The notes under the pieces were generated by a model. The model searched no databases. It was not told the DNA's origin and saw only the letters and a list, made by a program, of their open reading frames with translations. This document shows positions 1,893 through 59,817 of a stretch of 64,000 nt of DNA, piece by piece. Position 1 is the stretch's first letter. The number at the start of each line of letters is the position of its first letter. Both the position numbers and the translations under genes were made by a program. Source of the DNA: Minisyncoccota bacterium (GTDB lineage: Bacteria; Patescibacteriota; Minisyncoccia; UBA6257; 1-14-0-10-44-23); NCBI GenBank assembly GCA_041389085.1, contig JAWKSL010000001.1:228542-292541 (forward strand), in the 5' to 3' direction.

Positions 1893-1953
1893 GCTCGTCT
1901 ATTTATAGGGTAAGGATAGCCCAGAACTAATGCGTAAGGCAAAGCCTGGCTTT

Positions 1954-1987
1954 GCTCTAGAGCTAACTCTAGAGTTAGCTCTAGAGC
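1954..1987. repeat. palindromic element built on the CTCTAGAG core (cassette A 5' element)
   Basis: gctctagagctaactctagagttagctctagagc. A related perfect palindrome sits at 31244-31265 in the same position relative to a promoter and a small ORF. Confidence 0.6.
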
Positions 1988-2009
1988 AGTGTGTGGAGGC
2001 TTGGGTTTT

Positions 2010-2038
2010 TTGACAAAAATTTCTTTTTGTTTTATTTT
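2010..2038 (+). promoter_or_regulatory. sigma70-like promoter of cassette A
   Basis: TTGACA at 2010, 17-nt spacer, then tatttt. Confidence 0.4.
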
Positions 2039-2083
2039 TGGATAGAGAAAAGTGCCTTAAAAGGCGCTAGAAAGGAGGCCTTG

Positions 2084-2317
2084 ATGCGAAACTGCCTTGC
2101 GTACATTTCGCGGCACTGGGGAGAGCTCCTTCTGGCGCCCCTCCTCGGAGCTCTCAATCTGGTGTACGCGGCTCACCAGGATGTGCCGCCTTGGCTGCAC
2201 AAAGTGCTATGCATCCCGGGGTGTGTGATCCTCGCAATCCCTCTCGTCCTCATCGATGACCTCATCGTCTGGAAGAGAGAAAGAGCGCTCCAGAAGACTC
2301 TCGATGTCTTCAATTGA
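2084..2317 (+). CDS. small (77 aa) two-TM membrane protein, GC-rich (cassette A)
   Basis: SD aggagg sits 5 nt upstream of the ATG. The protein is hydrophobic and carries a PPWL motif. The 1991-start ORF upstream is a read-through of the promoter region. Confidence 0.55.
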   Translation: MRNCLAYISRHWGELLLAPLLGALNLVYAAHQDVPPWLHKVLCIPGCVILAIPLVLIDDLIVWKRERALQKTLDVFN

Positions 2318-2330
2318 GCTCCCCGCCTGA

Positions 2331-2368
2331 CCCCAGCGACTCGTAGTCGCTGGGGTTCAACTTTTTTG
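2331..2368 (+). terminator. conserved terminator hairpin (family shared with 31590-31626)
   Basis: ccccagcgactcgtagtcgctgggg followed by ttcaacttttttg. Confidence 0.7.
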
Positions 2369-2519: not shown

Positions 2520-4148
2520 CTATTTTCTTTGCTTTGCGGCTTTTATAAGCCCGCTAAAGAGTGGGTGTGGGCTTAGTGGTCGGCTTAGAAACTCTGGGTG
2601 AGCCTGAGTTGCTACAAAATATGGGTGGCCCTTTAACTCAATAAACTCCATAAGTTTCCCATTTGGAGATTTGCCTGAGAAAATAAGGCCTTTCTTTTCT
2701 ATCTGCTCTACATATGCGTTATTTACTTCGTAGCGGTGGCGGTGGCGCTCGATAACGCGTGGCTTTTTATACAAACTTTCGACAAGGCTTCCTTTTTTGA
2801 GCTTTGCTGGGTAGTTTCCAAGACGCATTGTCCCGCCATAGTGCTTCTTTGCGAGCTTTTCTTTTTGGCTTTCCATAACGTCTATTACTACGTGTGGAGC
2901 TTTCTTATCTATCTCTGCAGTGTGTGCGCCCTCAAGGCCGACTACGTTTCTCGCGAACTCTACAACTGCAAGTTGCATGCCGTAGCAAAGGCCAAGATAT
3001 GGGATCTTGTTTTCTCTACAGAACTTTATAACGTTTATTTTCCCCTCTATCCCCCTGCTTCCAAATCCTCCTGGCACGATTATTGCGTCGCACTTCTTAA
3101 GTTCTGCGAAGCTTGCCTTTTTGTTTTCAAAATCTGAACTATTAAGCCACCCTATTACTGGCTTAAGCTGCTTTTCATAGGCTGCGTGCTTTACCGCTTC
3201 GATAACAGAAATATATGAGTCGGTAAGAGTAAACTCTCCCGTAGCAAAATACTTCCCAACTATTCCTACCGTAACTTCGCCTTTTGGATTTTTAATGCGA
3301 GATACAAAACGGCGCCAATCTGAAAGGTTTGGTTTTCGTTTTCGTAAATTGAGCTTCTCTATTATTCGGTCTCCTAGGCCGTCGCGCTCAAAGTTGAGCG
3401 GAACTTCGTAAATACTGTCTACGTTTGGCGCTGAAATAACGTCTTGCCCTTGAAGGCCGCAGTTGAAGGCTATTTTCTCCTTTCGCACCTTGTCGAGCGA
3501 CACGTCTGCGCGCGCAATAATTATGTCTGGCTGAATTCCCACTGCGTTTGCTTGGCGTACTGCATTTTGAGTTGGCTTACTCTTAAGCTCTCCGTCCTTT
3601 TGCAACGGAAGAAAGCCAACTAAAACAAACAGGGCGTTTTGTGGGTTTTTAATTTTGAGCATTCTGTAAGCCTCAAGGAAAAGAATGTTTTGATACTCAC
3701 CTATTGTTCCTCCTACCTCTACTACAACAAAGTCGCTTTTGTGTTTTGCAGCACTCGCTTCGAGTTTGTCGATAACAAGCATTGGGATTTCTGGTACTAC
3801 ACTTACGCACTTTCCTTTGTATTCTAAGTTCCTCTCCTTTCTTATCATTTCAAGATAGAGAGAGCCTGTTGTCATATAGTCGCTGGTGTAGAGCTCAGTG
3901 TTTAGGAAGCGCTCGTAGTTCCCCATATCTTGGTCTGTTTCAAGACCGTCTGATAAAACAAAAACCTCACCGTGTTCGGTGGGGTTCATAGTTCCTGCAT
4001 CAACGTTTACGTACGGGTCTATCTTTATTGCGCTGACAGAAAATCCACGTGCTTGTAAAATTTTGGCTACTGAAGACGCGGTTATTCCTTTTCCGATTCC
4101 GCTCATCACTCCTCCGGCAACGAATATAAATTTGGTTGACTTATCCAT
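2520..4148 (-). CDS. pyrG: CTP synthase
   Basis: N-terminal KFIFVAGGVMSGIGKG and a C-terminal glutamine amidotransferase domain (GLCYGMQ). The likely start is MDKSTKFIFV. Confidence 0.9.
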   Translation of the reverse strand: MDKSTKFIFVAGGVMSGIGKGITASSVAKILQARGFSVSAIKIDPYVNVDAGTMNPTEHGEVFVLSDGLETDQDMGNYERFLNTELYTSDYMTTGSLYLEMIRKERNLEYKGKCVSVVPEIPMLVIDKLEASAAKHKSDFVVVEVGGTIGEYQNILFLEAYRMLKIKNPQNALFVLVGFLPLQKDGELKSKPTQNAVRQANAVGIQPDIIIARADVSLDKVRKEKIAFNCGLQGQDVISAPNVDSIYEVPLNFERDGLGDRIIEKLNLRKRKPNLSDWRRFVSRIKNPKGEVTVGIVGKYFATGEFTLTDSYISVIEAVKHAAYEKQLKPVIGWLNSSDFENKKASFAELKKCDAIIVPGGFGSRGIEGKINVIKFCRENKIPYLGLCYGMQLAVVEFARNVVGLEGAHTAEIDKKAPHVVIDVMESQKEKLAKKHYGGTMRLGNYPAKLKKGSLVESLYKKPRVIERHRHRYEVNNAYVEQIEKKGLIFSGKSPNGKLMEFIELKGHPYFVATQAHPEFLSRPLSPHPLFSGLIKAAKQRK

Positions 4149-5366: not shown

Positions 5367-5879
5367 GTGAAAGCTGCAATCCTTTGCCTTCTTGGCGCCC
5401 TTGTTGGCGTCTATCTCGTTGGTGTGCACGGCCTCCCTGCAACGAAGCTTGCGCACGTACTCGTGCTAGGAGGCATCGTCCTCGCGGCCGCTTTCTCTCT
5501 CCACTTTGCGACTCGTGCGAATTGCGGAGTGCCCATCTGCGACGATTCAGGCGATCCTCCGCTTGGCATTGTCGAGGTCGTTTCGGCTACGCGCGTTGAC
5601 TTTGATACTATGGGAGTCTTCATCAAGAAACCCAATGGAGAGTTTGATGAGCGCCTCTATCTTGAGGTGAATGAACGCTTGTTTGACCCCGCTATTAGTA
5701 AGTTCGCCCACCTTGAGTACCAGGCCCTACCCCACTCACTGACACCTCACTGGCGACGGCTTGCGCTCGTGAGCATCCCTGACGACCTCAGCACTGAGCC
5801 CATCGACTTTACTGAAGATGAGCCGGTGGCGCTCCCGCGGGCCGACAAGCCTCACGCTACCGCCCCTAAGGTGCCGTAG
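5367..5879 (+). CDS. hypothetical membrane-anchored protein, GC-rich (cassette C)
   Basis: GTG start preceded by ggagga; hydrophobic N-terminus; own terminator. No recognisable domain. Confidence 0.4.
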   Translation: MKAAILCLLGALVGVYLVGVHGLPATKLAHVLVLGGIVLAAAFSLHFATRANCGVPICDDSGDPPLGIVEVVSATRVDFDTMGVFIKKPNGEFDERLYLEVNERLFDPAISKFAHLEYQALPHSLTPHWRRLALVSIPDDLSTEPIDFTEDEPVALPRADKPHATAPKVP

Positions 5880-5930: not shown

Positions 5931-7259
5931 GTCTTGCCCAAAGGTGCCCACCTCGCGCTGAGGGATAAGGCCCGAATCTGTAGGAAGCGTAAAGTGGAAG
6001 GTAGAGCCTCTACCAAATACTGACTCTACCCATATTTGCCCGCCGTGCTGGCGGATAATGTTTTTCGCTATATAAAGTCCAAGACCACTTCCGGTGGTGT
6101 CTTTTTTTGTAACTGTTTCACTGCGGTAAAACTTTGTAAAAAGCTTATCTACCTCGTCTTGCTTAACTCCTACCCCGGTATCTTCAACAGTAATTTCTAC
6201 AAATGGCGCAGCTTCCTTTTCTTTTATTCTTACTATTACCTGCCCGTTTTCCACGTTGTACTTTATTGAGTTGTCGAGCAGGTTTGAAAGAACCATGGCT
6301 ATTTTTGAGGCGTCCATTGTTATCTGAATTTGCTTGTCTGGCTTTTCAAAAAACACATTTACCTTGCGCTGCATAGCTACTGGCGCTGCCTCGTCTACAA
6401 CTTTTTGGATAAAGCTGGTTATCTCTTCTTCCTTAAACTCAAAACCAAAGCGACCCTCCTCAATTTTGGTGACGTCTAAAAAGTCGCGAACTATGTTGCT
6501 AAGCTTCTGCGCTGCCTGTGAGCCTGCGGTAAATACACTGCGGCGAGTTGCATCGTCCAAATCTGGCTTTGCAAGCTCTTGGAAGGCCCAATTTATAGCG
6601 CTGAGTGGGGTGCGCAACTGGTGGCTTGCTACGGTAATGAATTCGTTTTTGCTTCGCGCGAAATTTACTGCACGCGTTCTGTCGTGGATGATTTTTACAA
6701 AAGCTCCCTGGCCGCTTTCTCCGCTAATTGGGATAGTTATAGACTGAAGCTCCATAAACGGATTTTCAAAAGAAAGATTTACTACCTGCGGATACTCGCC
6801 TGGTTTTGAAATTGGGTGAATAGATGGGGCAAGCGATGGGAACATAACCTGCCTAAGCAGGGTAAGGCTTGGGTTGCTTGCACTTGTTTGTATAGAAAAT
6901 ATCTTCCCCACTATCTCAGACTCCTTCACCTCGAAAAGAGTTTCGGCTTTTTTGTTGAAATTGAGCACTTTAAAATCGCTATCGTAGGCAATAACCGCAT
7001 CGTTTAGGTTTCGCACTATTGAGGTAAGAAGGTCGTGTTCAAGGTTGAGCTTTCCTTTTGTTTTTGCGCGGCCAAATGTAGCAGCAAAGAATATCGCAAC
7101 AAGAGAAGTAAGTAGAATGCCGGCTATTGCTTTAAATATAGCTGGCATATAGATAAGACTGAGCACGAGGAGCGCAACAATGACAAGAAGGGCTACGTAA
7201 AAGAAACGAGCGCTTTTGCTTTTAAGAAAAATTTTGGCTTCTCTGAGTATCTTTTTCAT
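5928..7259 (-). CDS. sensor histidine kinase (two TM helices, PAS-like, HisKA, HATPase_c)
   Basis: HQLRTPLSAI H-box, and DTGVGV...GSGLGL G-boxes. Confidence 0.8.
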   Translation of the reverse strand: MKKILREAKIFLKSKSARFFYVALLVIVALLVLSLIYMPAIFKAIAGILLTSLVAIFFAATFGRAKTKGKLNLEHDLLTSIVRNLNDAVIAYDSDFKVLNFNKKAETLFEVKESEIVGKIFSIQTSASNPSLTLLRQVMFPSLAPSIHPISKPGEYPQVVNLSFENPFMELQSITIPISGESGQGAFVKIIHDRTRAVNFARSKNEFITVASHQLRTPLSAINWAFQELAKPDLDDATRRSVFTAGSQAAQKLSNIVRDFLDVTKIEEGRFGFEFKEEEITSFIQKVVDEAAPVAMQRKVNVFFEKPDKQIQITMDASKIAMVLSNLLDNSIKYNVENGQVIVRIKEKEAAPFVEITVEDTGVGVKQDEVDKLFTKFYRSETVTKKDTTGSGLGLYIAKNIIRQHGGQIWVESVFGRGSTFHFTLPTDSGLIPQREVGTFGQD

Positions 7260-24721: not shown

Positions 24722-24753
24722 TCTTACGTCTTATCTCTAAACTCTCGCTTCTA

Positions 24754-30377: not shown

Positions 30378-31163
30378 TTATTTGTTCACAAGCTTAAGCT
30401 TTTTTGAAAGCTCGTATAGTTGCTCTACCGTAAGCTCTGAAGCGCGAACATTTTCTTCAAATTTGAGAGCTTTTAGGGCTTTGGCCGCATCCTGTTTTTC
30501 TACTCCTGCCTGGTTTAGGTTGTTGAGTAGTGTTTTGCGTGGCTGCTTGAATGAAGCTTTGAGAAAATCGAAGTAGCTTTGGTCTACTTCGGGCATTTTT
30601 TCTTTCTTTGTGAGCTTAATAACGGCAGATTTTACCTTTGGGGCTGGGTCGAAGTCGTTCTCGCTCAGATTCATCACGATTTCAGTGTCTGCCCATACCT
30701 GCACCGATGCAGCTATAAGGCTGAGCTTCTTTTTGTTGCATATTCTTTGAGCAACTTCTTTTTGAAGCATTAAAACTGCGGTTTCTGGCTTGTTTTGAAG
30801 GTCGGTGATGGTGCGCAAAATTTTTCCGCTGATGTAGTAGGGCAGGTTTCCTACAATGTGGTAGCGCTTTGGGCTTTTTTCTTCCATGAGCTTTGGGAGC
30901 TCTTTGAGCAAGTCTTTGTCGCGCACTTCAAAGCTACTCTCCTTTTTTTGAATGCTTTGGTAGAGCTTAAGGGCGAGGTTTCTGTCTTTTTCTATCGCTA
31001 CAAGCGTAGCGCCTGCTTTTTTGCACTCCTCAAGCAGAGGGTACGTAAGAGCTCCGGTGCCGGGCCCAAGCTCTACAACAAGGTCCCCCGCTTCTAGCTT
31101 TGGGGTAGATATAATGCGGGCTATAGCGTCTATGTTTATTAGAAAGTGTTGGCCTAAATACAC
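30378..31163 (-). CDS. rsmA: 16S rRNA (adenine1518/1519-N6)-dimethyltransferase
   Basis: FLINIDAIARI...GPGTGALT SAM-binding motif. Confidence 0.85.
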   Translation of the reverse strand: MYLGQHFLINIDAIARIISTPKLEAGDLVVELGPGTGALTYPLLEECKKAGATLVAIEKDRNLALKLYQSIQKKESSFEVRDKDLLKELPKLMEEKSPKRYHIVGNLPYYISGKILRTITDLQNKPETAVLMLQKEVAQRICNKKKLSLIAASVQVWADTEIVMNLSENDFDPAPKVKSAVIKLTKKEKMPEVDQSYFDFLKASFKQPRKTLLNNLNQAGVEKQDAAKALKALKFEENVRASELTVEQLYELSKKLKLVNK

Positions 31164-31243
31164 AAGAGTTTAGAGATAAGAGTTACGACGTAAGAATAGC
31201 TCATAACGAAGCCTAAAGGCAAAACTTTGCGTTGCTCTAGAGT

Positions 31244-31265
31244 TAACTCTAGAGCTTAATATAGA
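31244..31265. repeat. perfect 22-bp palindrome gctctagagttaactctagagc (cassette B 5' element)
   Basis: Homologous to 1954-1987, including upstream context (aaggcaaa...ttgctctagag). Confidence 0.6.
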
Positions 31266-31300
31266 GCAGTAGTGCGCGAAGAGTTATTTCTTGACAATAA

Positions 31301-31329
31301 GGCTAATTTATTTTATTCTCTTGGCAGAG
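31301..31329 (+). promoter_or_regulatory. sigma70-like promoter of cassette B
   Basis: TTGACA, 17-nt spacer, tattct. Confidence 0.45.
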
Positions 31330-31356
31330 CGATGGTGCTCTTGAGGAGGTGTTGGG

Positions 31357-31605
31357 ATGTTCCGATCCACCACCTATTTGCTTCTCCTCGGCTTCTCTCT
31401 TGTTGGAGGGGCTGCGGTCATGACAGCTCTTCTGATGGTCAGCCTTGCGCTGACCGCGCACCTGCCGCCATGGCTTGAACTCGCGGCTCGCCTCGCGCTG
31501 GTTTTCTCAGTGCTGCGCTGGGCAGGCCCGGCCCTCGGGAGGCTTCTCATTCCGATGTTCCGAGCTTACATTTCAGCTCGGAACGCCAACCCTAGCGACT
31601 TGTAG
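31357..31605 (+). CDS. small (82 aa) membrane protein, GC-rich (cassette B), weak paralog of 2084-2317
   Basis: SD gaggagg; hydrophobic; shares an AHxPPWL motif with the cassette A protein. Confidence 0.5.
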   Translation: MFRSTTYLLLLGFSLVGGAAVMTALLMVSLALTAHLPPWLELAARLALVFSVLRWAGPALGRLLIPMFRAYISARNANPSDL

Positions 31606-31626
31606 TCGCTGGGGTTCAACTTTTCT
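31590..31626 (+). terminator. conserved terminator hairpin (~90% identical to 2331-2368)
   Basis: ccctagcgacttgtagtcgctgggg followed by ttcaactttt. Confidence 0.7.
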
Positions 31627-31680
31627 ATAATCTGATGGCAAAAAACACCCGAATTAATTCATAATTAATTCGGGTGTTTT

Positions 31681-33501
31681 TTATTCTATGTACATGTCGT
31701 CTTCGTCGGGTAGCCAGCCGCTGCCTCCATCTGCTGAGAGTACGTCGCAGTTTTCTTGCGGTATTTCGTAGAGGAAACGCGAAGGGTAGGAAAAGTACGA
31801 TATGTAGAGCTTTTTGCGTGCCCGCGTCATAGCTACGTACATAAGGCGCCTCTCTTCTTCTACCCCGTCCATTTCTTGGTAAGCCTTTTGGTGGGGCATG
31901 TTTCCGTCGTTTACTCCTACGATAAATACGGTGTCGAACTCAAGCCCTTTAGCTATGTGTACGGTCATAAGCTTTAGCTCAGACATCTTTTGCCCTTGCG
32001 GGTGCTTTGTTTGGTCGTCGTTTGCCTGCAAAAGGAGCACTTGGTCTAAAAATTCTCCCAAACTTTCAAAGCTGCTGGCGAAGTTTACTAACTCGGCTAT
32101 GTTTTCGATGCGCTCGTGCGCATTTTGCATCTTTTGCGCGAGGTATTCTGGGTATTCTGTGCTGGTGAGGAATATGTTTATTAGCTCAACTGCCGAGGTT
32201 GTTTGCACTTCCTTCATCGCAAGGACGTAAGCTGCCGTGCGTCTTTTGCCAAGGCTTTTTTCAAGGCGCTCAATCGATGCGGTATCTTTTTCATTGTGCG
32301 CAACGGTGAGCGCTGCGACTATATCTTTTATTTCTTTTCGGTCGTAAAAGCGAAGCCCTCCGTATATCTTATATGATATATGAAAGCTTAAAAGTGCTTG
32401 CTCGATAGAGCGGCTTTGCGCGTTGGTTCGATAGAGTATTGCAATGCTTTGGCTTGGGTCTTTTCTTCGCAACGACTGTATTTCGCTCGCTAGCCACAAC
32501 GCTTCCTCTTCTGCGCTGCTGCTTTGCACAAGAGTTATTGGCTGGCCTTCTTCGTTGTCTGTCCAAAGTTCTTTCTTTGCCTGCGTCTTATTGTTTTTTA
32601 TTAGTGCGTTTGCACTTTCAATTATTTTCTTTGTACTTCGGTATGATTGCTCAAGCTTTACTACTTTTGCGCTTGGCCAGTCGCGCTGAAAGTTGAGAAA
32701 GTTTCTAAAGTTTGCACCGCGAAAGCCATATATAGCTTGCTGATCGTCGCCTACTACGTTTACGTTTTTGTGTTTGTGCCCCAGAAGACGAATGAGTTGG
32801 TACTGCGCGTTGTTTATGTCTTGATACTCGTCTACCAAAATGTAGTCGAACATATCTTGGTATTTTTGTAGTACATTTTTGTGTGCAAGAAAAAGTTGCA
32901 CTGGTTTTTGAATGAGATCGTCGAAGTCGAGCGCATTATTTTCTTGGAGTTGTCTTTCGTACTCTGCGTAGACTTTGTAGATAAGAACGTCGCGTTCATA
33001 TTCACTGTCGATGAGCTCAGTTTCGTCTCTTAATTCGTTTTTTATCTTTCCGATTGCGCTTAGAGCTTGCGGTGGGCTTAATCTCTCTTTTGATATATCG
33101 AAAGACTTTAAAATCTTCTTTACGATCGACGCACTTTTATCGTTGTCGTAGATAGAAAGGTTTGGTGTGCGCTGCAAAAGAGCTACTTCTTGTTTTAAAA
33201 TTCGTAGGCCAAAAGAGTGGAAGGTTCCGATAAAAGGAGCGCCATCGAGCGGAAGCCCTGGGGAAAGCTTCATTTTTGCGCTCCCAAATACGCGCTCGCG
33301 CATCTCGTCTGCTGCCTTGTTGGTAAAGGTTATAGCAACTATGCGCTGTGGAGGTACGTTGTGTGCTTCAATCAGGTGCTTTAGGCGGCTGGTAAGGGCT
33401 CTGGTTTTACCACTTCCTGCCCCTGCAGACATAAGAAGAGGGCCGCTTCCGTGTTGAACAGCCTCTTTTTGAGGCTCGTTTAGGTTTTCGAGGTGTTTCA
33501 T
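31681..33501 (-). CDS. pcrA: UvrD/PcrA-family DNA helicase
   Basis: GAGSGKT Walker A and helicase motifs (VDEYQD); 606 aa, short form. Confidence 0.85.
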   Translation of the reverse strand: MKHLENLNEPQKEAVQHGSGPLLMSAGAGSGKTRALTSRLKHLIEAHNVPPQRIVAITFTNKAADEMRERVFGSAKMKLSPGLPLDGAPFIGTFHSFGLRILKQEVALLQRTPNLSIYDNDKSASIVKKILKSFDISKERLSPPQALSAIGKIKNELRDETELIDSEYERDVLIYKVYAEYERQLQENNALDFDDLIQKPVQLFLAHKNVLQKYQDMFDYILVDEYQDINNAQYQLIRLLGHKHKNVNVVGDDQQAIYGFRGANFRNFLNFQRDWPSAKVVKLEQSYRSTKKIIESANALIKNNKTQAKKELWTDNEEGQPITLVQSSSAEEEALWLASEIQSLRRKDPSQSIAILYRTNAQSRSIEQALLSFHISYKIYGGLRFYDRKEIKDIVAALTVAHNEKDTASIERLEKSLGKRRTAAYVLAMKEVQTTSAVELINIFLTSTEYPEYLAQKMQNAHERIENIAELVNFASSFESLGEFLDQVLLLQANDDQTKHPQGQKMSELKLMTVHIAKGLEFDTVFIVGVNDGNMPHQKAYQEMDGVEEERRLMYVAMTRARKKLYISYFSYPSRFLYEIPQENCDVLSADGGSGWLPDEDDMYIE

Positions 33502-35020: not shown

Positions 35021-35284
35021 ATGAACGCAGTCCCTGTGAGTTTGAAGTGGCTGAAGGTGCGCCTTGCGGTGCTTGAAACAGGCGAGCTTTTGGCCTGGTA
35101 CACCGGTCTGGTTGTGCTTGCCGCCGCATTCTTCCAAGCCATGATGTACGGCCTTTGGCCTTACTTCTACCTCTGGTTCGCTGCAGGGGCTCTGTGGTGG
35201 ATCGGGAAGGGGCTTGGGGCGCGCGCAGACGCTTTGCGTCACATTGTGCGCCCTGAGCTCAACGCAGGCGCCAGTCGAAGATGA
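35021..35284 (+). CDS. small (87 aa) membrane protein, GC-rich (cassette E)
   Basis: SD aaggagg sits 6 nt upstream of ATG (MNAVPV); W/L/A-rich TM helices. The stop codon lies inside the terminator hairpin. Confidence 0.45.
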   Translation: MNAVPVSLKWLKVRLAVLETGELLAWYTGLVVLAAAFFQAMMYGLWPYFYLWFAAGALWWIGKGLGARADALRHIVRPELNAGASRR

Positions 35285-37593: not shown

Positions 37594-37806
37594 TCAGGGG
37601 AAGGCAACGAGATCGTCGTCGCTTGCATGCCCTGCACGCTTCGTACGCTCCGCAAGCTCGTTGATGTCGGTCTTCTTGAAGACCATCTGGCCTCCGTCTC
37701 TGAAGGCGCGGATCTCCCCTTCCGTAACGAGGCGCTTGAGGCGATTCTCGTCGATACCGAGCACTTCCATTGTCTCGTCAAAGCTGTAGTAGGCGGACCC
37801 TTCCAT
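37594..37806 (-). CDS. small HTH DNA-binding protein (excisionase/MerR-like), GC-rich
   Basis: METLGIDENRLKRLVTEGEIRAF helix-turn-helix; 70 aa. Confidence 0.5.
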   Translation of the reverse strand: MEGSAYYSFDETMEVLGIDENRLKRLVTEGEIRAFRDGGQMVFKKTDINELAERTKRAGHASDDDLVAFP

Positions 37807-44100: not shown

Positions 44101-44126
44101 TTGTTACGTAGCTTGCTACGTAACAA
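44101..44126. repeat. perfect 26-bp palindrome ttgttacgtagcttgctacgtaacaa
   Basis: Same element as 2369-2398; lies just past the terminator of the minus-strand mini-gene. Confidence 0.55.
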
Positions 44127-44127
44127 G

Positions 44128-44160
44128 AAGTGAAGAGGCGCGACTCAGGGAGAGTCGCGC
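44128..44160. terminator. bidirectional terminator (fba on +, mini-gene on -)
   Basis: ggcgcgactcagggagagtcgcgcc followed by tttcg. Confidence 0.55.
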
Positions 44161-44303
44161 CTTTCGCGTGTGAGGCTGTCGCCGCTTACGAAGAAGAGAA
44201 GGGCGGCAGTGAAGGCAGCTACGAGGAGCCCGACCCACCACAGGCCAGTTCCCTTTGCGACTCCGAAACCAAGCGCAGATCCGATGATGAGGTCGCAGTG
44301 CAT
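44145..44303 (-). CDS. unannotated 52-aa hydrophobic mini-protein, GC-rich (cassette D)
   Basis: Perfect SD aggagg sits 5 nt upstream of ATG. Sequence MHCDLIIGSALGFGVAKGTGLWWVGLLVAAFTAALLFFVSGDSLTRERRDSP. A TTGACC promoter lies upstream; the stop codon is inside the terminator hairpin. Confidence 0.45.
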   Translation of the reverse strand: MHCDLIIGSALGFGVAKGTGLWWVGLLVAAFTAALLFFVSGDSLTRERRDSP

Positions 44304-44390
44304 GGGGCCTCCTTTTACTATTATTCAGCCAGCTTTTTTGCCTCTGGTCAATACTTTTAAACCTGCCGTAATTTAACTACACTAGCTTTA

Positions 44391-45837: not shown

Positions 45838-47056
45838 ATTCGTAAATGAGAAAGGCGCGCAACACTTGCGCAGCCAATCGCGCCTTTCACGTGCTAACCG
45901 TTAGGCCTTCTTCATCCTGCCCTCGAGCAGCTGGAGCTCTTCTTGTAGTGGGCGCATGACTGCTTCAACGGCTCAGTGCTGCCGCCACGCTGAGCTCGTA
46001 AGGCGTCTCGGAAGACCTCTACGAGGCTCCTTTCTCCTCGAGCTTCTCACGGCGTCTGCCTTGAAGAGAGGCAGACGCCTCTGCGCTGCCATTCGGCACG
46101 AGCACGTTCTGTGTCACAGGTGGCGGATGGTGCCTGCGATCGAGGCGCACGGATCAGCCGAAGCGCATGAGCGAACCACCACCAGGAAGGTTGATGCCCT
46201 TGATGAACCCTCCACTCATCATCTGCCTCCGGGAAGGTGCCGATCCCTCTCCAGTGGCTCGGCTCCACCAGGGGCCGAGTCAGTCTTGTGTTCACGGGGA
46301 GCCATGACCGGTGGCGGCAGTACCCTTCGCTGGGTAGAGTTGGCCCAGAAGCTCTCCATCCGGAGTGCTCGACGAACACGCCTTGTTCTTCTCGGGGTCG
46401 AGGTTGCAGAAGGGCACTCTCCTGCCTGCAGCATGTTGCGCATGGCAACAGTACTGGGTAGCATGAAAGTACTTGCAGCGCAGCGGTCTTCATGATCCTG
46501 TGGTTGAAATTCGCAGCTCTTGGGGTGCACGAGATTATCCTCGCTGGGGTTCCTAGTTCTTGGGTTCTTCTCGGTTTTCAACTATTTTCCCCGCTGTAGT
46601 CAAGCAGCTGCACGAGTTTTTACCTTGACTGACTGGTGGTTTGGCTGAAATCTACGTTTCCTTGTAGAAGTTGTGCGTGTATGTGCTTTACACTTCGCCG
46701 GTGTATTTTGTGTTTAAAGCGGACAAATGAAGGAGCACTACTTCCCCTGTGTTGTCCTGCGAGCCACTGCCAGTGCCTTCCGAAACTCTTCAAATTCCTG
46801 GCAAGGCCAGTTCACTGATATGCTCGGCGTGTCTTTTAAAATAAGGATGAAATGATTTGCTTTGTTCCTTCGTATGGCTTGCTGGTTTTTGTCGTAAGCC
46901 AGAGTCTCCTTCTTTGAGAATTGGTTCTTTGTGGTACTTATCCTAGGCTTTCTTTACAGAAAGGGCAATTGTCGTCTTCTACTATTTGCTGCATCACTTT
47001 TTTCTGCTCGTCGATGCGTGAATTTCAAATCTGCAAGTGTTTCTTTCGCTCATATT

Positions 47057-50636: not shown

Positions 50637-51416
50637 TTGATTTTTAGGCCTGGTTTGGTTTATAGTAGCCATACTATGCCAGAGAACGATATACGCTCAC
50701 TGCTTATCGATGGGCTTAAACGTAAGCACCTTACCCCTGAAAGGCTTCAGGGGCTTACTGAAGTTCCTATGCACTACCTCGACAGTCTCCTCGCTGGAGA
50801 CTGGGCTGATTTGCCTGCGCGTCCATACGTTCGTGGCTACCTTATAAAAATTGCTCGTGAGCTCGATCTGGACGAAGACGATCTTTTAGATCGCTATCAA
50901 AACCAATTTCTTGCAGCTTCTGGATCTTTTGACTCACTTCCAGGCAATCGCTTTGCGCTCCCCTCTTTTAAATATCGAAAGCTTCTTATTCCTTTCGCGG
51001 TATTGGTAGTAATTATTTACGCTGTTTTCTTTACCATCTCTTCACGCACTCCTTATCTGGAGCTTGTAACTCCACCAAACGAAAGCCTGGAACCATATGC
51101 AGTAAACACGCCAGAAATAGTGCTCGAAGGTAGTGTTGAGGAGGGAGACAATGTTTTCATTAATGGCGACCAAGTAGAGGTAGATAGTACTGGCACGTTT
51201 CAATATCCATATACTCTCTCTTTAGGGCTTAACACTATAGAGTTTCGTGTAAGCCGCTTCTTGGGTAAGGAAATACGGGTTATAACCCAGGTATTTTTTG
51301 AACGCACACCGGTGATTATTGAGGATAGCAGCGACGATTCTCAGCTTTTAGAGGCTACTGATGAGCCTGCAAGTAGCTCGGTTGAGCTTGATAGTGAGGA
51401 TGATACAATAAATTAA
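50637..51416 (+). CDS. RodZ-like HTH membrane protein
   Basis: N-terminal HTH ([23 protein letters not shown]), one TM, and an acidic C-terminus. Confidence 0.45.
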
Positions 51417-59520: not shown

Positions 59521-59532
59521 TGTAAACCATAA

Positions 59533-59583
59533 ATCAAAAACACGACGCAAGGTCGTGTCTCTGATTTTGTCGGGCCGCCGGGA
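59533..59583. repeat. 51-bp direct repeat copy 1 (tRNA-Pro 3' end + terminator hairpin)
   Basis: atcaaaaacacgacgcaaggtcgtgtctctgattttgtcgggccgccggga is identical to 59710-59760. Confidence 0.8.
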
Positions 59584-59709
59584 CGCTTCGCTATCTCACT
59601 CTCTGAAAACCCACGGTTTTCCAGCGCATGCTTCGCGTGCTGCCTTCCTACACGGGGAACTTCCGTTCCCCGACCCCCTCCCGTCCGATTCCCGGCCCGT
59701 ACTTTAGTA

Positions 59710-59760
59710 ATCAAAAACACGACGCAAGGTCGTGTCTCTGATTTTGTCGGGCCGCCGGGA
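59710..59760. repeat. 51-bp direct repeat copy 2 (includes the genuine tRNA-Pro 3' end and its terminator)
   Basis: Perfect match to 59533-59583. Confidence 0.8.
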
Positions 59761-59817
59761 ATCGAACCCGGGCCGCACGCTCCCAAAGCGCGCATACTAC
59801 CATTATACGACGGCCCG
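59747..59817 (-). tRNA. tRNA-Pro (TGG)
   Basis: Manual cloverleaf: anticodon loop UUUGGGA, T-loop TTCGATT; the D-stem is imperfect. Confidence 0.7.

Follow-up and report, generated by a model that had tools for sequence, protein, structure and literature searches.

The gene cassette of an integron is a promoterless open reading frame (ORF) joined to an attC site, and it is held in an array beside intI and attI. The type I toxin families (Ldr, Ibs, Hok, TisB) are multi-copy accessory genes for small hydrophobic membrane peptides; such a peptide is toxic when over-expressed, and its mRNA pairs with an antisense or divergent small RNA that has a promoter of its own. Putative mobile promoters have been described as 50-100 nt of upstream DNA, at least 80% identical, found before non-homologous genes of one genome (Matus-Garcia, Nijveen & van Passel 2012, PMC3488235). 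The YefM-YoeB operator has palindromes that are 12 bp apart from centre to centre (PMC1802561). Here we describe cassette B (31190-31624, plus strand) and its relative cassette A (1910-2365, plus strand), which lie 29 kb apart between housekeeping genes on a 64,000-nt stretch of Patescibacteria (Candidate Phyla Radiation, CPR) chromosomal DNA, contig JAWKSL010000001.1, and compare them with these systems. This whole stretch is called the window, and all counts given for the window refer to these 64 kb of host chromosome.

With moderate confidence we regard cassette B as an accessory gene for a small membrane peptide, transcribed divergently from a selected promoter/operator block that would also serve the neighbouring housekeeping gene. 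The flanks would then be kept by their function, and the ORF would be free to drift, except in its hydrophobic helices and a turn motif.

Anatomy of the two cassettes

The two cassettes and the leader beside cassette B are made up of the following features.

31164-31189, minus strand: short ksgA leader (GTG start at 31163) with no Shine-Dalgarno motif; outside the A/B homology, 96% identical to sister-species contig L204.
31190-31225, minus strand: outward promoter-like site of B facing ksgA, with putative promoter function; -10 TATTCT (reverse complement of 31193-31198), 18-nt spacer, -35 TTGCCT (reverse complement of 31217-31222).
31234-31267, no strand: palindrome array of B, a putative operator; CTCTAGAG units at 31235-31242 and 31247-31254, and a degenerate unit ATATAGAG at 31259-31266.
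31291-31319, plus strand: predicted peptide promoter of B, TTGACA-17-TATTCT, 10/12 to consensus; absent from L204.
31326-31356, plus strand: putative 5' leader of B, with a hairpin AGAGC...GCTCT at its start and the Shine-Dalgarno motif GAGGAGG at 31343-31349.
31357-31605, plus strand: ORF B, 82 amino acids, a predicted two-helix membrane hairpin with AHLPPWL at the turn; its TAG stop lies within the terminator loop.
31588-31624, plus strand: predicted intrinsic terminator of B, a 13-bp stem and 3-nt loop followed by CAACTTTT; 92% identical to the A terminator.
1910-1990, no strand: 5' block of cassette A, with an outward promoter-like site facing holA (ATG at 1892) and a 36-bp palindrome; -10 TATCCT (reverse complement of 1913-1918), -35 TTGCCT (reverse complement of 1937-1942).
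2010-2365, plus strand: peptide part of cassette A, with predicted promoter TTGACA-17-TATTTT (2010-2038), Shine-Dalgarno motif AGGAGG (2073-2078), an ORF of 77 amino acids (2084-2317) and predicted terminator (2329-2365).

The outward site has the common form TTGCCT-18-TATYCT on the minus strand, with the two best-kept sub-blocks of the 5' block. Its hexamers are invariant across A, B and the sister species except at the fourth -10 position, and the transcribed leaders past the outward -10 box differ between A and B.

The unit of the palindrome array is the 8-bp palindrome CTCTAGAG, and the array has a period of 12 bp. The first two units of B form a 22-bp palindrome, GCTCTAGAGTTAACTCTAGAGC, at 31234-31255; the three units of A, at 1955, 1967 and 1979, together form a perfect 36-bp palindrome at 1953-1988. 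All five occurrences of CTCTAGAG in the window are inside the two cassettes, where 1.6 would be expected for the window from dinucleotide shuffles and 0.9 from base composition; CTAG as such is depleted in the window (90 observed versus 241 expected). The array sits in the same register in A and B, between the outward promoter-like site and the TTGACA-17-TATTYT promoter of the peptide. Transcripts are predicted to start near 31326 (plus) and 31186 (minus) in B and near 2045 (plus) and 1906 (minus) in A, and the plus-strand ones to end near 31624 and 2365. The centres of the array would then precede the peptide start by about 63, 75 and 87 bp, and the outward start by about 52, 64 and 76 bp.

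A match to the palindrome pattern in a viral contig (L001, the IMG/VR phage contig IMGVR_UViG_3300006737_005161) was set aside, about one match being expected by chance. It is an iteron-like (G/A)ACTCTAGAG array at 3890-4030, within a phage ORF and also of 12-bp period; it resembles a replication origin, and the motif it has in common with the cassettes is probably a coincidence.

The predicted peptide promoters of A and B each match the sigma-70-type consensus (TTGACA and TATAAT-like hexamers 16-18 nt apart) at 10 of 12 positions and have the same layout with a 17-nt spacer. In this genome, sigma-70-like sites are enriched in intergenic DNA, which holds 30 of the 59 sites in about 18% of the sequence. 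Both predicted terminators fit the intrinsic type, with 13-bp stems containing 7-8 G-C pairs, a 3-nt loop and CAACTTTT. In B the 5' arm of the terminator also encodes the last codons of the ORF: the TGA stop of A aligns with TCA in B, and B continues for nine codons into the arm before it reaches TAG in the loop.

Conservation of the flanks

A first-pass annotation of this DNA had proposed that a 5' palindrome with its upstream context and a terminator of about 90% identity are common to A and B, and that these non-coding ends are conserved more strongly than the ORF between them. Alignment of the two cassettes bears this out, with the palindrome at 31234-31255 instead of starting from 31244. 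The conserved 5' context is real and longer than had been claimed, covering 81 nt (1910-1990 versus 31190-31270) at 78% identity. The terminators are identical at 34 of 37 positions (92%), including an exact run of 23 nt; of the differences, one falls in the loop, and a second, from C to U, preserves pairing as G.U. The terminator gave two matches in the window and none in 100 shuffles.

By segment, A/B identity is 75-78% in the 5' block, about 47% in the peptide promoter, 39% in the leader, 40% in the ORF and 92% in the terminator. Promoter, leader and ORF between the flanks are thus at chance level (about 40%), and the unevenness between flanks and ORF is highly significant (Fisher p = 1.2e-14). 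Divergence of this kind is not that of a simple, uniformly aged duplication.

Profile searches with nhmmer found no third copy of the 5' block, the terminator or the whole unit in the window, so the motifs are not generic terminators or other common elements. A third site with TCGCTGGGGTTC at 46541 was rejected as chance, there being no hairpin and no cassette at that position. Scanning the genome contigs with a terminator 21-mer gave no match, nor did a 19-mer scan of viral contigs. A 17-mer scan of metagenomes gave at least 120 loci, and among the matches listed none extends into the hairpin, so these were taken as chance matches to a word that is too short. No match to cassette B was found by blastn in phage and plasmid collections.

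Comparison with a sister species

Contigs of a sister species, about 82-94% identical to the window at the nucleotide level, were reached through members of 90% protein clusters. L204 has, at its B locus, the ksgA leader together with the outward promoter-like site and the array, which over 110 nt are 94-96% identical to the window. This is above the identity of the neighbouring ksgA coding sequence (86%), pcrA (90%) and downstream genes (89%), with a binomial P of 0.007 for the 5' block. The outward site is 94% identical and the array 96%, the single change in the array being in a spacer. All five substitutions of the block are outside the hexamers and the CTCTAGAG cores; they miss the functional motifs and therefore point to selection on the 5' block.

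The peptide promoter, the ORF and the terminator are absent from L204, in which 408 nt of the window (31274-31681) are replaced by about 30 nt. At the A locus (L205 and L206) the whole of cassette A is absent, and holA is 16 nt from a palindrome, TGTTACGTAGCTTGCTACGTAACA, that in the window stands 5 nt past the terminator of A. The peptide part is therefore accessory, present here and absent at both orthologous loci of the sister species, in agreement with the proposal of a variable peptide cargo. In L206 a stretch of about 100 nt (2397-2500), from the TTACGTAGC palindrome to the end of pyrG, is also missing, a second small insertion or deletion at the A locus.

The first-pass annotation had offered recombination or regulation as the function of the flanks. 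Regulation fits the sister data, with a block that stands alone and is 94-96% identical beside genes of 86-90%. Since it stands alone there and is more conserved than the surrounding genes, the 5' block is more than a mere cassette end or recombination site, and we regard the 5' flank as putative regulatory DNA under selection that is able to stand alone.

Cassette B is antisense within the pcrA-to-ksgA junction, which is otherwise tight in relatives, and cassette A is likewise antisense between pyrG and holA. The pcrA-to-ksgA adjacency is kept in 13 Paceibacteria loci, with a spacer of 17-170 bp in 9 of the 13 and of 517 bp here. Larger pcrA-ksgA spacers in L123, L126 and L130 were inspected and rejected, their contents being unrelated co-directional genes and not cassettes. 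No cassette-like sequence was found in the relative L202 (PcrA 68% identical) or in the GTDB Paceibacteria loci.

The peptide genes

Several properties of the sequence argue that ORFs A and B are coding. In both, a Shine-Dalgarno motif stands 5-7 nt upstream of the ATG, and the GC contents at codon positions 1, 2 and 3 (0.65/0.36/0.69 in A, 0.64/0.49/0.67 in B) give a strong codon-position periodicity. The motif AH-x(1-3)-PPWL is in frame in both; where its codons differ, they do so at synonymous third positions alone (GCT/GCG, CCT/CCA, CTG/CTT).

It had been suggested that the 82-residue B peptide is a weak paralogue of the A peptide, and our comparison supports this. BLASTP gives a local match of 7/15 around AH..PPWL (E = 0.035), and the similarity is above that of shuffled sequences (p = 0.012 for local and 0.0035 for global alignment). 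AlphaFold2 used without an alignment predicts helices 2-33 and 38-77 for B, at a predicted local distance difference test score (pLDDT) of 83, and helices 2-31 and 39-76 for A (pLDDT 68), with the conserved motif at the break in each. The two peptides are distant paralogues and predicted helical hairpins.

Both are orphans. No family match was found in Pfam, NCBIfam, PHROGs or PADLOC, and no word-based homologue in large public protein collections. An exhaustive HMMER search of 1.84 billion representatives with B yielded no more than 3 weak matches, each in several stretches, to proteins of 480-984 amino acids. NCBI accessions run on without a gap across the genes flanking A, and likewise across those around a third peptide gene, C (see below), which suggests that the A and C genes are not annotated publicly. 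The B gene, which found no self-match in the protein collection, appears to have been missed as well.

Interpretation

The favoured reading of cassette B can be put as a mechanism. Its 5' flank would be a two-way control block of about 84 bp, in which the outward promoter-like site reads into ksgA at B and into holA at A. The three 12-bp-phased CTCTAGAG palindromes would be the operator of a putative dimeric DNA-binding protein, and the near-consensus sigma-70-type promoter would drive a short structured leader with a Shine-Dalgarno motif and the 82-residue peptide gene. The block would stay similar because purifying selection acts on regulatory DNA, and the ORFs would have drifted to saturation because constraint is confined to the hydrophobic helices and the AH-x(1-3)-PPWL turn.

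Several points weigh against this reading. The outward promoter-like site scores 8/12 to consensus, which is below the 9/12 cut-off of our promoter scanner, so that it was not called; its support is its conservation. The promoter and operator roles and the binding protein are putative, and only two copies are visible within 64 kb. The reading does not account for the exact 23-nt match of the terminators across paralogues with saturated synonymous sites, since ordinary termination needs no specific stem sequence. Finally, at the A locus the 5' block itself lies within the insertion or deletion seen in L205 and L206, so the block can move or be lost together with the peptide gene.

The most serious alternative, which we consider unlikely, is mobility: the unit from outward promoter to terminator would be a small non-autonomous mobile element that inserts antisense into operon junctions, brings a promoter for the severed gene and has ends recognised by a mobilising enzyme. 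Both loci do differ in presence or absence from a species of about 82-94% nucleotide identity, both insertions are antisense between co-directional housekeeping genes, A/B homology ends sharply just beyond the outward -10 box and at the terminator T-run, and the high third-position GC content and Shine-Dalgarno motifs look foreign. Against this, the ends of the unit have no terminal inverted repeat in common, and cassette A shows no target-site duplication when compared with the empty site. The ORFs scanned against Pfam include no recombinase or transposase; the sole candidate is an excisionase-like HTH_17 protein 6 kb away, and nothing matched in phage, plasmid or viral collections. The first three of these absences also count against the recombination role once offered for the flanks. 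Furthermore, the sister keeps the 5' block of B without the rest. Its remnant at this locus can be aligned, weakly, with the peptide-promoter region (p = 0.024), and the 9 nt of TTTTATTCT are repeated directly at 31310-31318 and 31677-31685; both fit a deletion there and not an insertion here, a hint that the sister may have lost B.

A bolder form of the same idea, speculative and somewhat less likely again, is that the cassettes are an undescribed class of promoter-carrying mini-cassettes in CPR. These would insert antisense into operon junctions without terminal inverted repeats, by an unnamed mechanism. They would split operons, and one operator would then govern both the housekeeping gene downstream and a membrane peptide that evolves fast (a toxin or symbiosis factor), and the terminator hairpin and palindrome array would double as mobilisation sites.

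We find it doubtful that the cassettes are type I toxin-like loci, in which membrane-damaging peptides are restrained at the RNA level and the leader and 3' hairpin are kept to control stability or translation of the mRNA. In its favour are small, hydrophobic, orphan peptides whose genes, like those of the Ldr, Ibs and Hok families, are paralogous and accessory. Folding of the transcripts is unusually strong (z = -4.5 in B, -4.4 in A), and in the minimum-energy fold of B the Shine-Dalgarno motif pairs with CUCC inside the ORF. The terminator hairpin, however, supplies part of the folding z-score, and the leaders are not conserved between A and B (39%). At 77-82 amino acids with two helices the peptides are bigger than most type I toxins, and there was no PADLOC, Pfam or PHROGs match. 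At the scanner threshold neither cassette has an opposite-strand promoter-like site, inside it or next to it, and there is thus no sign of an antitoxin RNA, although a weak promoter is possible.

Gene conversion between the cassettes, or a recent partial copy, could keep the flanks alike while the ORFs diverge, and the 23-nt exact terminator match would agree with it. We judge it improbable. The tracts, of 37 and 81 nt, would be very short, and A and B are no more than 78% identical in the 5' block. The B block is 95% identical to its sister orthologue and 78% to A, and has therefore evolved vertically since speciation without homogenisation from A, which speaks against an ongoing exchange. 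Substitutions also avoid the functional motifs, pointing to selection instead.

That the ORF is incidental to a structured non-coding RNA between promoter and terminator is very improbable: a GC content of 57-60% in a 46% GC genome, a folding z of about -4.4 and an estimated chance of about 7% for an 80-codon open frame at this GC content would allow it, but it is opposed by properly spaced Shine-Dalgarno and ATG in both copies, the codon-position periodicity, the in-frame motif with its synonymous-only differences and the lack of any Rfam match, even at E <= 10.

Other GC-rich small genes

Third-position GC content (GC3) is 0.67-0.69 in A and B, versus 0.45 +/- 0.08 in host genes. Small stand-alone genes with a GC3 of 0.61-0.74 form a class that includes A and B; its other members are the following.

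44145-44303, minus strand: peptide gene C.
35021-35283: gene D.
37594-37806, minus strand: excisionase-like HTH_17 gene.
5367-5879: orf170.

A Shine-Dalgarno motif (GGAGG or AGGAG) at -18 to -4 was found in all six genes (starts at 2084, 31357, 44303 on the minus strand, 35021, 37806 on the minus strand, and 5367) and in none of 40 host genes with an ATG start. High GC3 together with a Shine-Dalgarno motif that is absent in host genes suggests either a foreign origin or a separate class of expression or translation initiation. The small HTH_17 protein is the only one of its kind in the window, and no CTCTAGAG site is near its own gene.

Peptide C is a small membrane peptide of 52 amino acids encoded by a GC-rich gene on the minus strand. 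Unlike A and B, it is present in the sister species (L207 4222-4470 and L208 1312-1560, versus 44101-44350 in the window). The C ORF is 98% identical to the sister at the nucleotide level, and the flanking genes FBA and DHFR are 89% and 82% identical, a pattern of either ultra-conservation or recent exchange. We tried C and D as relatives of A and B and did not find the case convincing; only B and C gave a nominal similarity (global p = 0.0035, local p = 0.04), not taken as homology in view of the hydrophobic composition common to both.

The terminators of A and C are each followed by a second palindrome.

2371-2396, no strand: palindrome TTGTTACGTAGCAAGCTAGGTAACAT, unrelated to the 5' array, 5 nt past the terminator of A; also at 44101-44126, past the terminator of peptide gene C.

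The element has the form TTGTTACGTAGC(WW)GCTACGTAACA (20 nt exact between the two sites). It has no T-run and is not an obvious terminator. The same element is present in the sister at the empty A site (L205 about 24-47, L206 about 5947-5970) and at the C locus of L207 and L208. A search for the TTACGTAGC palindrome in viral contigs gave no match.

GC-rich orf170, of 170 amino acids and membrane-anchored, has a middle part (5424-5790) without detectable nucleotide similarity to L206 2547-2916, between flanks of 86-91% identity. It is a fast-evolving accessory protein.

Other features of the window

The window, of 46% GC, carries dnaA, rnpA, yidC, recA, pyrG, ksgA, pcrA, ribosomal protein genes and five tRNAs, and it encodes an HTH_25 protein (50637-51416). 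It belongs to a genome of Paceibacteria: its PcrA is 100% identical to the NCBI protein MEZ4156633.1, and the nearest species representatives by PcrA (about 50% identity) are Paceibacteria. One further feature adjoins cassette B.

31640-31682, no strand: two-way terminator at the end of pcrA, a perfect palindrome with 20-bp arms between A and T runs; outside the A/B homology.

Three other observations were made. A 17-nt exact match joins 24729-24745 (plus strand) to the ksgA leader at 31165-31181 (reverse complement), 6.4 kb apart, where about 0.24 would be expected by chance; the copy at 24729-24745 is in an intergenic spacer, in the opposite orientation relative to its neighbouring genes. 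A perfect 52-nt direct repeat (59532-59583 and 59709-59760) overlaps the 3' end of tRNA-Pro (59746-59817, minus strand), and the duplication, which is att-like, may have been left behind by an integrated element. A GC-rich tract of 0.7 kb at 45850-46560 (up to 63% GC) contains long ORFs in both directions. It shows no bias of GC by codon position and has no Pfam match, and it may be a decayed foreign gene or an unrecognised RNA.

Significance

Few regulators or mobile elements are recognised in the small genomes of CPR/Patescibacteria. A non-coding block of about 84 bp that is under stronger constraint than neighbouring essential genes, and that stands before two unrelated housekeeping genes (holA and ksgA), is a candidate operator or regulon in an uncultured lineage. 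The peptide genes differ in composition and translation signal from every host gene examined, and sister species have gained or lost them; they point to a hidden pool of accessory genes that may be overlooked by standard annotation. If the cassettes were mobile, a very small insert could split and rewire an operon.

Comparison with known systems

Integron cassettes resemble ours in having a variable ORF as cargo and a conserved, structured 3' element. The cassettes described here differ in having a predicted promoter of their own, and their 3' element is a plain perfect hairpin with a T-run instead of an attC site with paired R and L boxes. Furthermore, the copies are 29 kb apart and not arrayed, no integrase was found among the ORFs scanned, and no attI was seen. 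We considered GTTCAAC as an integron R'' box (consensus RYYYAAC) and rejected it, as it has no partner R' box. Nor do the cassettes resemble miniature inverted-repeat transposable elements (MITEs) or insertion sequences, since no inverted repeat joins the ends and no target is duplicated relative to the empty A site.

With type I toxin genes the cassettes have in common accessory, multi-copy genes for small hydrophobic membrane peptides (77 and 82 amino acids, two predicted hydrophobic helices each), a predicted promoter and terminator of their own and a strongly folded mRNA. The peptides are longer than typical, with two helices, and what is conserved is the terminator and the DNA before the promoter, not the leader. 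The cassettes are thus not integron cassettes, not MITEs and not a demonstrable type I toxin-antitoxin locus.

The YefM-YoeB operator (PMC1802561), a paired-palindrome operator for antitoxin-type repressors, resembles the 5' block in having short palindromic cores at 12-bp centre-to-centre spacing beside a promoter. Here, however, the core is CTCTAGAG and not TGTACA, there are three units and not two, the array is upstream of both -35 boxes and not over a promoter, and no toxin-antitoxin pair is encoded.

Putative mobile promoters (PMC3488235) are like the 81-nt block in that it recurs before unrelated genes, holA and ksgA. The block is absent before holA in the sister (L205 and L206) and present before ksgA in L204, as for a promoter that has relocated. 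The identity of the block, 78%, is just under the 80% cut-off used there; unlike them, it is two-way with a phased palindrome array, and at both loci it is coupled to a divergent small-peptide gene with a common terminator. A propagated promoter/operator plus an orphan small-protein gene brings together known kinds in a new combination.

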